Position numbers and translations under genes: made by a program. A stretch of DNA of 64,000 nucleotides from Escherichia phage vB_EcoP_EP32B: the sequence record OR544955; one strand, written 5' to 3'. The notes below the pieces were generated by a model. The model was not told the DNA's origin. It did not search any database and saw nothing but the letters and a program-made list of their open reading frames with translations. This document shows positions 4,036-41,398 of the stretch, in pieces (position 1 is the stretch's first letter; the number at the start of each line of letters is the position of its first letter).

Positions 4036-4058
4036 GGGAGACTTCGGTCTCCCTTTTG
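4036..4058 (+). terminator. Intrinsic terminator after gene 32
   Basis: Perfect hairpin GGGAGAC-TTCG-GTCTCCC followed by TTTTG. Confidence 0.8.
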
Positions 4059-4084
4059 AGTATCTGTAAATTGCCAAAAAAGTT

Positions 4085-4114
4085 GTTTACTTCTTCCCTG
4101 GATGTATTAGTATA
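4085..4114 (+). promoter_or_regulatory. T4-type early promoter
   Basis: GTTTAC at 4085-4090, -10-like TATTAG/TAGTAT ~17 nt downstream. Confidence 0.5.
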
Positions 4115-4142
4115 GACATATCAACAACATGAGGAAATCAAA

Positions 4143-4535
4143 ATGGAAATCGGAAAATCTTATATCATTAACCCTTTATTTAAAGACGACTTTGTTCAAG
4201 AAGCACCACATAATAACGCTAAGATGTTAAAACTGATTGAACTCCATGGGCCTAGTTTTGTTGTAAACGGAATGGAACCTGATTATGATAGCGATACGTC
4301 AAACGTAGTAAGTGTAACTATGGAAGATGGTACTGTATGTTCTGCCGGTGGTGAAATTGAAACTTATTTTGAGATTTATCCTGACGAGTTCAAATACTTT
4401 ACTGAGGTAGATTTAGTAAAACCTCAACCTACTAACGAAGGTATAACTTTAGGTGTAACAAAAATCCATTGTATCGTAGATGAAACCAACGTCGACGAAA
4501 TCATCAAACTTTTGCAAAAAACTTTTAAAAAGTAG
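4143..4535 (+). CDS. Hypothetical early protein (frd.x position)
   Basis: 130-aa ORF on the sense strand of the early array; early promoter at 4085-4114. Confidence 0.5.
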   Translation: MEIGKSYIINPLFKDDFVQEAPHNNAKMLKLIELHGPSFVVNGMEPDYDSDTSNVVSVTMEDGTVCSAGGEIETYFEIYPDEFKYFTEVDLVKPQPTNEGITLGVTKIHCIVDETNVDEIIKLLQKTFKK

Positions 4536-4598
4536 TGTATAACAAGATAGGGCTATGTTATAGTAGTCCTATCAAATAAAAGTGAAGAGGAGAATAAA

Positions 4599-4781
4599 AT
4601 GAGATTGCAACGCCAGAGCATCAAAGATTCTGAAGTTAGAGGTAAATGGTACTTTAACATAGTTGGTAAAGACGCTGAACTCCTTGAACAAGCTGAAGAA
4701 GCTTTACGTGAAATGGGTTGGAACGAAGAATGTGATGGATGTCCACTCTACGAAGATGGTAAATTAAAATGCTTAAATTAG
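4599..4781 (+). CDS. Hypothetical small early protein (frd.x position)
   Basis: 60-aa ORF preceded by GAGGAG RBS; Cys-rich C-terminus. Confidence 0.45.
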
Positions 4782-5356
4782 TATTCGCATGTGCTCCGAC
4801 TAAAACAGTTGATGATAAACTGGAATATGCTTTTGGATTAGGTGATGGACTTCCATGGAAGCATATCAAACAAGATATGAGTAACTTTGTTGCTCGCACT
4901 AAAAACACTGTAATGGTTATGGGTGCTAAGACTTTTGCATCATTACCTCGTCTACTCCCAGATCGTACTCATGTGGTTGTCACTGATATGGCCAGAAAAC
5001 TGCCTAGGACTAAAACTGATGAACTTGCACGGTTCTATATCACCCAATCTGAATTTATTACCTTGGTAACAGGTGGTGAAATTAACCTGTTTAGCCCTGC
5101 GTCCGACGTACCGTTTAAACTTTCTACTGAACATGTTGATGTCTCGGTTATTGGCGGTCCAGCTCTGTTGAAACAAGCACTGCCTTATGCCGATGAAATC
5201 GTGATGACTAAAATCATTAAGAAATGTCGTGTTAATTCCGATGTTCAACTTGATAAAGATTTCGTCCAAGATATTATGCTTCAACGTTCTATGGTAGAAT
5301 CTCATTACTACAGAATCGATGAACTCACCGAAATTACTGAGAGCGTTTATAAATGA
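4769..5356 (+). CDS. frd: Dihydrofolate reductase
   Basis: 195 aa (T4 193 aa); N-terminus [30 protein letters not shown] and C-terminus ...ITESVYK match T4 DHFR; stop overlaps td start. Confidence 0.88.
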
Positions 5357-6196
5357 AACAATACCAATACCTGATTAAAGATATCTTAGAAAATGGCTAC
5401 GAAACAGACGACCGTACAGGTACCGGCACTATTGCCCTGTTCGGAACTAAATTACGTTGGGACCTGACTAAAGGATTCCCTGCAGTAACAACTAAGAAAT
5501 TAGCATGGAAAGCTTGTATTGCCGAGTTACTGTGGTTCATGTCTGGTTCTACCAATGTTAATGATTTGCGTATTCGTACTCATGGTAGTCTTATTCAAGG
5601 TAAAACTATTTGGGACGACAACTATGAAAATCAGGCAAAAGACCTTGGATATCATAGCGGCGAACTTGGTCCTATTTATGGTAAGCAATGGCGTGATTTC
5701 GGTGGTGTAGACCAATTAATTGAAACAATCGACCGTATTAAAAAATTACCAACTGATCGTCGTCAAATTGTTTCTGCCTGGAATCCGGCCGAAATAAATC
5801 AAATGGCTCTTCCTCCTTGCCATATGTTCTATCAGTTCAATGTGCGTAATGGTCATCTTGATTTATGTTGATGTTTTCTTGGGTCTGCCATTCAACATTG
5901 CCTCGTACGCTGCCTTGACTCATATTGTAGCTAAGATGTGTAACCTTATCCCAGGTGATTTAGTGTTCTCAGGCGGCAACACGCATATCTACAGCAATCA
6001 TGTAGAACAATGCAAAGAAGTTCTTCGTCGTGAACCTAAAGAGTTATGTTCTCTTGAAATTAATTGGCCTAGTAATTTTGAGAATTGGCCTACAAAAATC
6101 CAAATGGACTGGGTTACCGGAACGATGACATATTCTGATTTCGTTCTTAAAAATTACGAATCACACCCAACTATCAAAGCTAAAATGGCGGTATAA
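5353..6196 (+). pseudogene. td: Thymidylate synthase gene, intronless, broken by a frameshifting deletion near 5865/5866
   Basis: ORF 5353..5871 ends ...LPPCHMFYQFNVRNGHLDLC*; ORF 5840..6196 in another frame continues VDVFLGLPFNIASY...KAKMAV. Conserved QWYQRS-type segment between them is missing (about 17 nt). Confidence 0.85.
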
Positions 6197-6451
6197 ATGA
6201 TTTTACGTTTTATTAATTCATATGGCACCACAATTTTTGAAATGAAAAATCCAAGTGAACTGGATATCCCTTCACCGAATAGTGAAATCACAGTTAAAGG
6301 TGAACGATTCATTTGCTATTCACACGAACGAATTTATGAATATCGTGAATTTTGTGGTGGTTACGGTATAGAAAAAGAACCGTTGGTTTATTTCGATATC
6401 ACAGTCTTGACACCTAAAGAATACGAAGAAATTATTGCTGAGGATAATTAA
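6197..6451 (+). CDS. Hypothetical early protein (nrdA.x position)
   Basis: 84-aa ORF between td and nrdA on the sense strand. Confidence 0.5.
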   Translation: MILRFINSYGTTIFEMKNPSELDIPSPNSEITVKGERFICYSHERIYEYREFCGGYGIEKEPLVYFDITVLTPKEYEEIIAEDN

Positions 6452-6538
6452 CGCTTCAGTTTAAAAGTGTATAATAAATTAACGGGATAAATACTATCCC
6501 GTTTGGAGTAATGTCTATCAACCTATACCGAGGACTAT

Positions 6539-39687: not shown

Positions 39688-39690
39688 CGA

Positions 39691-39717
39691 AAAAGGGACC
39701 GTAAGGTCCCTTTTTTT
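39691..39717. terminator. Bidirectional terminator between rnlB and gene 24
   Basis: AAAA-GGGACC-GTAA-GGTCCC-TTTTTTT between convergent genes; overlaps gene 24 stop. Confidence 0.8.
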
Positions 39718-40999
39718 ATTCATCAATGATAATTTTTGGTAGCTTAACACCGAGTAAAACAGACAAGTCTGAACGTCCTGCCATTTTATCCATGTCCCCG
39801 CCATCAATTATTCTCGCTTCTTTTTCATCTTTTGCTACTGTGTAAGGATTTGCTGATAAGGCATATCTAACCAATAATCCGATAGACGGTTGCAAGCTTT
39901 CTGGATCAACTACAACTTTAAATGCACCGACATGTTCCGGGTCATCTAAATCCACTCCTTCAGTATATGGAGCATAAAAGATGGACCCTACAATTTCTTT
40001 TTCGCCGAGATTTTCTACAACACCCACAATAACATAATCTAACGGGCTGTTGGTATCGCAGTAAAGAGGTAATCCATTTGCCAAGAATCCATAAGCATTT
40101 TGTGAAAGATACTTGTCATCTTCTGGCTTATGTTTTAACCAACCGGAAGCAGCAAGAATAGCAGCTGCACGAGCTGAGGCTACACAAAACGTTGCAGTAT
40201 AAGTTGTCTCTTTTTGGATGTGTGATACCATTTCACACACCATTCGATATAACGAACGACCTGCTTCTGGAGCGGATGCATAGCTCAAGTCAATAAATCC
40301 GGTGTCAGTAATTCCAGTAACTTTATAACGTTTCGATACAGTAATTAAAGACTGAAGAATATCTTTATTAATTTCATCTGCCATTTCAGTAGCAAGCAAA
40401 TCTTCTAAGAAGTTAGGGGCATCAAATCCATTCGCTTCCAAATCTTGCGCTAATTCAACCGTGAGGCCAGTTTTAAGTTTACGAGATTTGACTGAAGTTT
40501 GCCATTTATTAATCTGGAATCTTGCATCAGAAATTTCGCTATCAGAGCTTTCAAATTTGCTTGTTACCGCTGCATCTGAAAATAACCGTACCTTTAAATG
40601 AACGACCGCAATCTGAAGAGCTAATTCTAGATCACTTTCTTGAATATCTGCAAATGGTGTATCTTCTAACACTTTATAGACGATATTATTATATTTGAAA
40701 AAATCGCCTTTATTTAGTGTGACTTTTGATTCTTCTGTGAGTTCGGTAATTTTTTCTCGGTCTACATATCCAACTTCACCAGCATAAGTAGCACCGGTTT
40801 TAAATGTGAATTCGTTATCTGGGTTAAGATATTTGATACCATAAAAAGCAGCAACAGGTTGATTAGTTCTTTGTGTTGCTACAATGTCAGAATATATTAA
40901 TTTAGTCGTAGCGCGAGTCAAAGCAACGAGATTTGGGCGACCAATTGAGTTGCTAGTAGACGTTGTAGATTCACGCAATAATTTTTGGATTTTACTCAT
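39716..40999 (-). CDS. 24: Capsid vertex protein gp24
   Basis: 427 aa, identical to T4 gp24 length; late promoter 28 nt upstream; paralogous to gp23. Confidence 0.88.
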   Translation of the reverse strand: MSKIQKLLRESTTSTSNSIGRPNLVALTRATTKLIYSDIVATQRTNQPVAAFYGIKYLNPDNEFTFKTGATYAGEVGYVDREKITELTEESKVTLNKGDFFKYNNIVYKVLEDTPFADIQESDLELALQIAVVHLKVRLFSDAAVTSKFESSDSEISDARFQINKWQTSVKSRKLKTGLTVELAQDLEANGFDAPNFLEDLLATEMADEINKDILQSLITVSKRYKVTGITDTGFIDLSYASAPEAGRSLYRMVCEMVSHIQKETTYTATFCVASARAAAILAASGWLKHKPEDDKYLSQNAYGFLANGLPLYCDTNSPLDYVIVGVVENLGEKEIVGSIFYAPYTEGVDLDDPEHVGAFKVVVDPESLQPSIGLLVRYALSANPYTVAKDEKEARIIDGGDMDKMAGRSDLSVLLGVKLPKIIIDE

Positions 41000-41026
41000 T
41001 GCATTTTTTCCTTATGTGATATAGAT

Positions 41027-41034
41027 TATTTATA
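41027..41034 (-). promoter_or_regulatory. Late promoter for gene 24
   Basis: Minus-strand TATAAATA 28 nt upstream of gene 24 start. Confidence 0.65.
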
Positions 41035-41040
41035 AAGATT

Positions 41041-41070
41041 GTTTACAACGTATTTGGTATGTGATACTAT
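41041..41070 (+). promoter_or_regulatory. T4-type early promoter for ORF 41101..41370
   Basis: GTTTAC 41041-41046; TGATACTATAGAC -10 region (same module as 18351/18794). Confidence 0.55.
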
Positions 41071-41100
41071 AGACTTATCAACTACAGAGGAGTAAACAAA

Positions 41101-41370
41101 ATGACTAAAGCACGTTTCTTACGAGATACTTTAAAAGTTCTGGAAGCTGAAGCAGTTAAGTTAGTAGAAAAATATGGTGCAAAAGTTAATGGTAATGCCT
41201 TCAACAAAGTATGGATGAAAGTTGATTCTGAAGCTCGAGCTAAAGGTTATTGGGCCACTGATAAACTTGCATCATTCAAAAACAAAGACGGTTCTCCAGC
41301 ATATATCCAAGAAGGTATGCCTAATTGGCAAAATATTTTGAAAACTTACATCAAAATTGCACAGAAATAA
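41101..41370 (+). CDS. Hypothetical protein on the early-sense strand between genes 24 and 23
   Basis: 89-aa ORF with its own early-type promoter (41041-41070) and RBS GGAG. Confidence 0.5.
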   Translation: MTKARFLRDTLKVLEAEAVKLVEKYGAKVNGNAFNKVWMKVDSEARAKGYWATDKLASFKNKDGSPAYIQEGMPNWQNILKTYIKIAQK

Positions 41371-41398
41371 AACCAAAAATGGGAGACCGAAGTCTCCC
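41371..41398 (-). terminator. Intrinsic terminator after gene 23 (inverted copy of the gene 32 terminator hairpin)
   Basis: Minus strand reads GGGAGACTTCGGTCTCCC followed by ATTTTTGGTTTT. Confidence 0.8.

Follow-up and report, generated by a model that had tools for sequence, protein, structure and literature searches.

Three identical copies of one 18-bp hairpin sequence lie in the DNA analyzed here, a window of 64,000 nt from Escherichia phage vB_EcoP_EP32B (OR544955). The window belongs to a Mosigvirus (RB69-like, T4-type) phage. We asked what these copies do and why they are identical. An earlier note had described them as a hairpin terminator present three times, once inverted, and had proposed that such palindromic modules could act as portable terminator cassettes and as substrates for recombination or inversion. 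Our coordinate check confirmed the three copies: a search of the window found exact matches to GGGAGACTTCGGTCTCCC at 4036-4053 (+), 18297-18314 (+) and 41381-41398 (-). The chance expectation, estimated from 100 dinucleotide-preserving shuffles of the window, was 0 matches, which rules out a chance origin. The copies and their tails are as follows.

4036..4053, plus strand: copy 1, GGGAGAC-TTCG-GTCTCCC, beginning 6 nt past the stop of gene 32 (ssDNA-binding protein; ORF end 4029)
4054..4058, plus strand: T-run of copy 1, TTTTG, then the U-rich GAGTATCTGT; flagged as terminator-like
18112-18291, plus strand: homologue of gene 30.9 (59 aa), the gene upstream of copy 2
18297..18314, plus strand: copy 2, the same hairpin as copy 1, beginning 5 nt past the stop of the 30.9 homologue (18291)
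18315..18319, plus strand: T-run of copy 2, TTTTG
41381..41398, minus strand: copy 3, the same hairpin, beginning 24 nt past the stop of gene 23 (major capsid protein; stop at 41423-41425)
41369..41380, minus strand: T-run of copy 3, ATTTTTGGTTTT; RNA tail AUUUUUGGUUUU

In the 18-mer, two inverted arms of 7 bp enclose an asymmetric loop, which reads TTCG on one strand and CGAA on the other. The word palindromic therefore suits the arms but not the whole element, and because the loop is asymmetric, the strand of each copy can be read. In all three copies the TTCG strand runs in the same sense as the gene before it. Thus copy 3 is indeed on the minus strand, but it is sense to gene 23 just as the other copies are to their own genes, and functionally it is not inverted. 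On its plus-strand side, the hairpin is followed by AAAATAAG, not by a T-run.

The stem has 7-8 bp with five G-C pairs and a 4-nt loop, and its minimum free energy is -13.4 kcal/mol. It reaches 8 bp at copy 2 if 18296/18315 are counted and at copy 3 with 41380/41399; folded with its flanks, copy 3 gives -16.1 kcal/mol. The loop is UUCG closed by a C-G pair (...GAC-UUCG-GUC...), that is, a C(UUCG)G tetraloop. Each copy thus combines the sequence features of an intrinsic terminator: a G+C-rich hairpin with a small loop, a U-rich tract on its 3′ side and a sense position downstream of a gene. A scan of the whole window against Rfam at gathering thresholds matched no family; the hairpins thus do not belong to any described structured RNA.

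All ten C(UUCG)G hairpins in the window sit immediately 3′ of a gene on the same strand. Two of them are family variants of the 18-mer.

60658-60675, minus strand: variant after gene 8, GGGAGCCTTCGGGCTCCC, i.e. GGGAGCC-TTCG-GGCTCCC, then ATTTTTGTAT
19236..19253, plus strand: variant after the 30.7 homologue, TGGGAGC-TTCG-GCTCCCA, with no T-run

The first variant differs from the 18-mer by a single compensatory base-pair change (A-T to C-G). In NC_041863, the nearest complete relative, each of the three sites carries the same copy, and a further one follows gene 35, in a region outside the window.

We consider it highly probable that the copies are intrinsic terminators after gene 32, gene 30.9 and gene 23, identical through a selected vocabulary together with probable copying. 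In RNA, each copy would form a 7-8-bp G+C-rich stem under the very stable C(UUCG)G tetraloop, and the U-run behind the stem would make E. coli RNA polymerase drop the transcript just past the three genes. The hairpin may also shield the 3′ end of the mRNA. Termination and mRNA stabilization at the three sites would be expected from the sequence and its predicted fold, from the place and orientation of the hairpins, and from the conservation of the sites and the recurrence of the hairpin. The UUUUG tracts at copies 1 and 2 are short, so these two may be partial terminators (attenuators) or act mainly as exonuclease barriers.

The same sites in related phages agree with the terminator reading. 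In Escherichia phage vB_EcoM_PhAPEC2 (KF562341, Mosigvirus), ARNold terminators are annotated after gp23, gp30.9 and gp32, and we checked that the hairpins after gp30.9 and gp32 are the same 18-mer. There is no substantive difference from the window, and the record is silent on the copies being identical. According to its summary in PMC4371310, the C(UUCG)G tetraloop was first described in T4 mRNA by Tuerk et al. (1988); the T4 terminators, as summarized there, share with our copies the loop, the C-G closing pair, the G+C-rich stem, the intercistronic place and the T-run. Over 100-149 kb of the T4 genome, we made the comparison with T4 that the earlier note had suggested. At each of the three sites T4 also has a terminator, and its stem differs from site to site: GGGGACC-CTAGA after gene 32, GAGGACTCC-TTCG after 30.9 and AGGGAACC-TTCG after gene 23. 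UUCG terminators thus follow gene 23 and gene 30.9 in T4 itself. Unlike T4, the lineage of the window uses a single stem at all three sites. The T4 hairpin after hoc is identical to that of the window.

Among T4-like genomes in IMG/VR, a terminator-like hairpin was found after g32 at 28 of 29 loci, after 30.9 at 25 of 25 and after g23 at 54 of 57; the loop was TTCG in 19, 13 and 31 of these, respectively. In all, T4 and about 50 further T4-like genomes had terminators at the three sites. Distant T4-like phages sampled without bias (gp23 about 39% and gp32 about 40-45% identical) had hairpins of the same style, with GGG-purine stems and TTCG loops, but none carried the exact 18-mer. Therefore, the many exact matches after distant gp23 and gp32 genes result from selection by the query out of a broad vocabulary, and they are not universal conservation.

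How widely the 18-mer is used bears directly on its identity. It occurs exactly in more than 120 stretches of a viral collection and in more than 120 of a bacterial one, with a T-run at 107/122 and 103/126 occurrences, respectively (82-88%). The bacteria carrying the hairpin belong to many phyla. For 117 viral cases the upstream gene was examined: 31 were Gp23, 13 gp32 and 21 belonged to five other capsid families. A major capsid gene was upstream in at least 52 of the 117, and the capsid genes preceding the 18-mer in IMG/VR represent at least six Pfam capsid families. Among 88 cases with a variant sixth stem position, 31 had a capsid gene upstream. A search that kept this stem but allowed any loop gave TTCG in 70 of 120 viral matches. 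The 18-mer is thus a generic, widely reused hairpin design. Other phages also have strong terminators behind the major capsid gene, e.g. T-phi after gene 10 in phage T7. These resemble copy 3 in being stable hairpins straight after the most highly expressed late gene, but the stem and loop sequences of the T7 example are unlike the 18-mer.

When the sixth stem position was left free, a Watson-Crick or G-T pair was kept in 120 of 120 matches (A-T 27, G-C 29, G-T 24, T-A 18, C-G 15, T-G 7). The exact A-T variant (27/120) was not specially favored, its number being similar to those of the G-C, G-T, T-A and C-G variants. Pairing that is kept with any pair is the mark of selection acting on structure rather than sequence. 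This bears on the idea that the stem is a specific protein recognition site, e.g. for the GGAG-specific endoribonuclease RegB or a recombination protein, and not a plain terminator. The 5′ arm does contain GGAG, Mosigvirus encodes RegB homologues, and the authors of the work on PeSL (promoter-early stem-loop) elements speculated on a protein binding their G/C stems (PMC2839356). We nevertheless regard this idea as very improbable: all kinds of pairs occur at the sixth position at similar frequency and pairing is never lost, the same hairpin is found in bacteria of many phyla that lack T4 proteins, and no protein binds the UUCG tetraloop according to a review (PMC4371310).

The PeSL elements themselves (Arbiol et al. 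2010, PMC2839356; Comeau et al. 2014, PMC4122927) suggest another interpretation, in which the hairpins are mobile cassettes of stem-loop and early promoter that spread by recombination and shuffle the genes between them. Using the T4-early consensus TTTACW..TAYWAT from PMC4122927, we found ten matches in the window, all on the plus strand, vs 1.15 expected. Two promoter-like sites lie next to the copies.

4086..4113, plus strand: T4-early-type promoter-like site, TTTACT-N16-TAGTAT, 33 nt past copy 1, read from the sequence
18352..18379, plus strand: match to the T4-early promoter consensus, TTTACT-N16-TACTAT, 38 nt past copy 2

The second site is upstream of the 30.8 homologue (18421-18789), in the terminator-then-promoter order of PeSL. 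The first has one mismatch to the consensus and is a putative promoter, upstream of the ORF at 4143-4535 (frd.2-like). Copy 3 has no early promoter downstream in the sense direction. Copies 1 and 2 would thus resemble PeSL in placing a terminator before a T4-early promoter-like site, within about 35-40 nt, between early genes, and this promoter would restart transcription of the next gene. PeSL stem-loop sequences are likewise lineage-specific and repeated within a genome, and they are documented in other T4-type phages, where they form mini-circles. However, copy 3 and the gene 35 copy lie behind late structural genes and lack an early promoter. Homology between copies ends within 5-12 nt past the T-run, and the promoters beyond copies 1 and 2 are alike only at the level of the consensus.

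The tails of copies 1 and 2 are both CCC-TTTTG, and these copies are therefore identical over 23 bp. In several T4-like lineages a single "house" hairpin recurs from site to site: Mosigvirus and EcS1 use GGGAGAC, the group of Citrobacter phage Moon AGGAGCC and another lineage GGGAACC-CTAGT. Within a single genome, non-homologous sites share identical blocks of 23-35 bp, made up of the hairpin, the T-run and some bases beyond; in EcS1 and the Moon group the blocks reach 34-35 bp. Orthologous terminator sites, in contrast, differ between T4-like genomes. The same stem was present at g32 and g23 in 6/16 genome types vs 2.4 expected, and at g32 and 30.9 in 3/10 vs 0.6 expected; shuffle tests of this sharing, in which relatedness of the genomes was ignored, gave P about 0.006-0.02. 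No extended homology was seen upstream of the copies, and downstream it stops within 5 nt in the window and within about 12 nt in other genomes.

This pattern, together with the PeSL precedent, lends partial support to the proposal of portable cassettes in the earlier note. However, identity here is limited to the hairpin and T-run, and much of it can be put down to convergence on a limited set of strongly selected hairpins. As the 18-mer arises in unrelated phages and bacteria, its identity needs no mobility. Nor did 188-744 related records show a joined junction between any two copies, a shuffled arrangement or a recombination product. We therefore think it unlikely that the hairpins are mobile elements of the PeSL type.

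The same junction searches, made as the earlier note had advised, bear on its suggestion that the copies are substrates for homologous recombination or inversion. Working substrates would give deletion between direct copies or inversion between plus and minus ones. Exact repeats of 18-23 bp do exist in both arrangements, and T4-type phages are generally highly recombinogenic (PMC2839356). However, synthetic junction queries found the predicted deletion 1-2 in 0 of 223 matching phage records, inversion 1-3 in 0 of 188 and inversion 2-3 in 0 of 744. All 26 T4-like genomes compared have gene 23 and gene 32 on opposite strands, whereas an invertible segment would occur in both orientations. Homologous recombination in T4 reportedly needs patches approaching 50 bp to be efficient (Singer et al. 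1982, cited in PMC2839356), and the repeat here is shorter. A 1-2 deletion would also cost the phage about 14 kb, with gene 31 and numerous genes of replication and nucleotide metabolism. Hence, a role as recombination or inversion substrates seems extremely improbable.

Within the terminator reading, the identity has two causes. A tiny, strongly selected vocabulary (GGGAGNC with UUCG) is reached repeatedly by phages and bacteria and used above all after the most highly expressed genes. In addition, short terminator modules were probably copied occasionally between terminator sites within a T4-like genome, as the within-genome blocks suggest. Tail identity could partly come from constraints of the U-tract or of adjacent late promoters. 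More tentatively, the terminator hairpins of T4-like phages might evolve in concert, with modules of 23-35 bp copied between non-homologous sites and giving each lineage its house terminators; short-patch gene conversion or template switching at the hairpin would be the route.

The three hairpins are a known kind of signal, and the finding is slight in itself: a textbook signal that is annotated already in the sister genome PhAPEC2. It serves as a calibration, in that exact repeats of about 18 bp with a UUCG hairpin and a T-run should be read as terminators and not as recombination sites or mobile elements. Across unrelated phage families, major capsid and ssDNA-binding genes have this one hairpin family at their 3′ end, a mark that could aid gene calling in metagenomes. 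Finally, the terminators within one T4-like genome tend to be the same from site to site, a hint that very short regulatory modules evolve in concert.

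The earlier note had claimed three exact copies of the hairpin element GGGAGACTTCGGTCTCCC in this RB69-like, T4-type phage (genus Mosigvirus), and all three were recovered. They are given here with a near copy and two early promoter sites.

4036-4053 (+): exact 18-mer, copy 1 (sequence match)
18297-18314 (+): exact 18-mer, copy 2 (sequence match)
41381-41398 (-): exact 18-mer, copy 3 (sequence match)
60658-60675 (-): near copy GGGAGCCTTCGGGCTCCC, one compensatory base-pair change from the 18-mer
18352-18379 (+): T4-early promoter match, 38 nt past copy 2
4086-4113 (+): T4-early promoter-like site with one mismatch, after copy 1, read from sequence

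The 18-mer had no match in 100 dinucleotide-preserving shuffles. It had been described as palindromic, which holds for its 7-bp inverted arms but not for the whole element. The loop is asymmetric, TTCG on one strand and CGAA on the other, and the strand of each copy is therefore readable. Copies 1 and 2 are both followed directly by TTTTG, so that 23 bp are identical between these two; read on the minus strand, copy 3 is followed by ATTTTTGGTTTT. The predicted fold of the hairpin alone is -13.4 kcal/mol.

Each hairpin begins shortly downstream of a stop codon: copy 1 at 6 nt from that of gene 32 (ssDNA-binding protein), copy 2 at 5 nt from that of a 59-aa homologue of T4 gene 30.9, and copy 3 at 24 nt from that of gene 23 (major capsid protein, minus strand). 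Thus, all three have one orientation relative to their own genes. The statement that one copy is inverted is true of the strand but not of the function, as copy 3 merely follows a minus-strand gene. The window contains ten C(UUCG)G hairpins whose stems are 5 bp or longer, each located immediately 3′ of a gene on its own strand (gp32, nrdB, 30.9, 30.7, alt.1, hoc, gp8, wac, gp23 and uvsW). The hairpins after uvsW and wac, at 34356-34373 (-) and 54221-54236 (-), have no T-run and directly precede the Shine-Dalgarno sequence and start codon (ATG) of the gene that follows. These two resemble barriers inside an operon, for RNA stability or processing, more than they do terminators.

As had been proposed, the 18-mer copies are predicted terminators; they are of the intrinsic type, with a C(UUCG)G tetraloop cap. 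They are a known kind of feature, already annotated in a relative: the GenBank record of Mosigvirus PhAPEC2 has a "putative terminator determined with ARNold" after gp23, gp30.9 and gp32, and the sites after gp30.9 and gp32, whose sequences we checked, are identical to the 18-mer. In T4, each of the three orthologous sites has a terminator, but the three stems differ from one another and from those of the window: GGGGACC-CTAGA-GGTCCCC after gene 32, GAGGACTCC-TTCG after 30.9 and AGGGAACC-TTCG after gene 23. The hoc hairpin at 38032-38049 (+), AAGGGGCTTCGGCCCCTT plus TCTTCGTTTT, is identical in T4 (10166-10183 of the T4 stretch examined). Among T4-like genomes in IMG/VR, terminator-like hairpins followed g32 at 28 of 29 loci, 30.9 at 25 of 25 and g23 at 54 of 57; the loop was TTCG in 19, 13 and 31 of these, and the exact 18-mer occurred at 5, 2 and 12 loci, respectively.

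The early promoter consensus used (TTTACW-N15-18-TAYWAT) had 10 matches in the window, all on the plus strand, compared with 1.15 expected. One match, 41042-41070 (+), belongs to a small RB69ORF188c-like ORF (41101-41370, plus strand) convergent with gene 23. On that strand, copy 3 reads as a CGAA loop followed by AAAAUAAG, without a U-run, and the early transcript may therefore continue antisense to gene 23. Beyond plain terminators, the closest described concept is the PeSL (promoter-early stem-loop), a cassette of a stem-loop plus an early promoter (PMC2839356, PMC4122927). Copy 2 has this layout and copy 1 nearly so, its promoter-like site having one mismatch, whereas copy 3 and a gene 35 copy in a relative do not.

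That relative, Escherichia coli O157 typing phage 3 (NC_041863), is 97-98% identical to the window and has all three copies at the same sites. A genome-wide search revealed 21 UUCG hairpins in it and four exact 18-mers, the fourth after gene 35 (164437-164454, -), beyond the window. The tail is TTTTG in the two early-gene copies and ATTTTTG in the late-gene copies. The gene 35 copy and the gene 8 variant (62042-62059, -; window 60658-60675) have a common tail, ATTTTTGTAT, and lead directly into a late promoter, TATAAATA, which mirrors the early terminator-promoter pairs.

Twelve segments of 34-321 bp that are present in NC_041863 are missing from the window (after 3572, 3837, 4761, 9359, 12128, 17951, 20197, 22124, 23289, 33840, 42448 and 53224). 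Their junctions are clean and have at most slight microhomology (0-3 bp); eight of the 12 segments have a length that is not divisible by 3. Gene 32 (twice), nrdB, rIII, DNA ligase, gene 23 and a head-completion gene are broken. As written, the sequence would not give a viable phage, and an assembly or processing artefact is therefore likely. None of the 12 segments touches the hairpins.

The suggestion that the copies are substrates for recombination or inversion was not supported. Synthetic junctions were built for one deletion (copies 1 and 2) and two inversions (copies 1 and 3, copies 2 and 3); no joined junction was found among 223, 188 and 744 matching phage records, respectively. Genes 23 and 32 were opposite in orientation in all 26 T4-like genomes in which both were located. 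In addition, efficient T4 recombination is reported to need approximately 50 bp of homology (Singer et al. 1982, as cited in PMC2839356), which exceeds the 18-23 bp of these repeats.

Much of the identity of the copies is explained by convergence on a narrow hairpin vocabulary. There is also evidence that terminators were copied between sites. Escherichia phage EcS1 has ATGGGAGACTTCGGTCTCCCAT at all three sites, with 34 bp identical between its g32 and 30.9 copies, and 34-35 bp are common to the g32 and g23 terminators of the Citrobacter phage Moon group (AAGGAGCCTTCGGGCTCCTTTTGTTGTTTCTGGA). In other lineages, GGGACC or GGGAACC-CTAGT recurs at two sites. Homology around reused terminators stops within about 12 nt past the T-run, and none was found upstream. 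Stem-sharing tests, which ignored genome relatedness, are only suggestive: g32 and g23 shared a stem in 6 of 16 distinct genome types (2.4 expected, P about 0.02), and g32 and 30.9 in 3 of 10 (0.6 expected, P about 0.006). The idea of portable cassettes has modest comparative support. No PeSL-type exchanges were seen.

With respect to convergence, the exact 18-mer occurred in at least 120 stretches of the viral collection and at least 120 of the bacterial genome collection, and among the matches listed, 107 of 122 viral and 103 of 126 bacterial occurrences had a T-run after the hairpin, on its UUCG strand. Distant T4-like phages, sampled without bias, had hairpins in the same style but lacked the exact 18-mer. 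When the sixth stem pair was unconstrained, the first 120 viral matches listed had A-T (27), G-C (29), G-T (24), T-A (18), C-G (15) or T-G (7), and never an unpaired position; with a free loop, 70 of the 120 viral matches listed had TTCG and 11 had GAAA. These counts indicate that both stem pairing and the UUCG loop are under selection; the A-T variant, which is the 18-mer, is not special. Several contigs of Gallionellaceae and Nitrosomonadales carried two exact 18-mers within about 1-4 kb. Reuse of the 18-mer as a favoured terminator is suggested in some bacterial lineages too. Among the viral matches listed, the gene directly upstream encoded a Gp23-family capsid protein in 31 of 117 cases, gp32 in 13, and a major capsid protein of five other Pfam families (Phage_capsid_4, Mu gpT, SU10, HK97-type and T7 Gp10A) in 21; for the position-6 variants listed, a capsid gene was upstream in 31 of 88 cases. 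These results implied that the hairpin is a generic strong terminator, found repeatedly behind the genes that unrelated phages express most highly.
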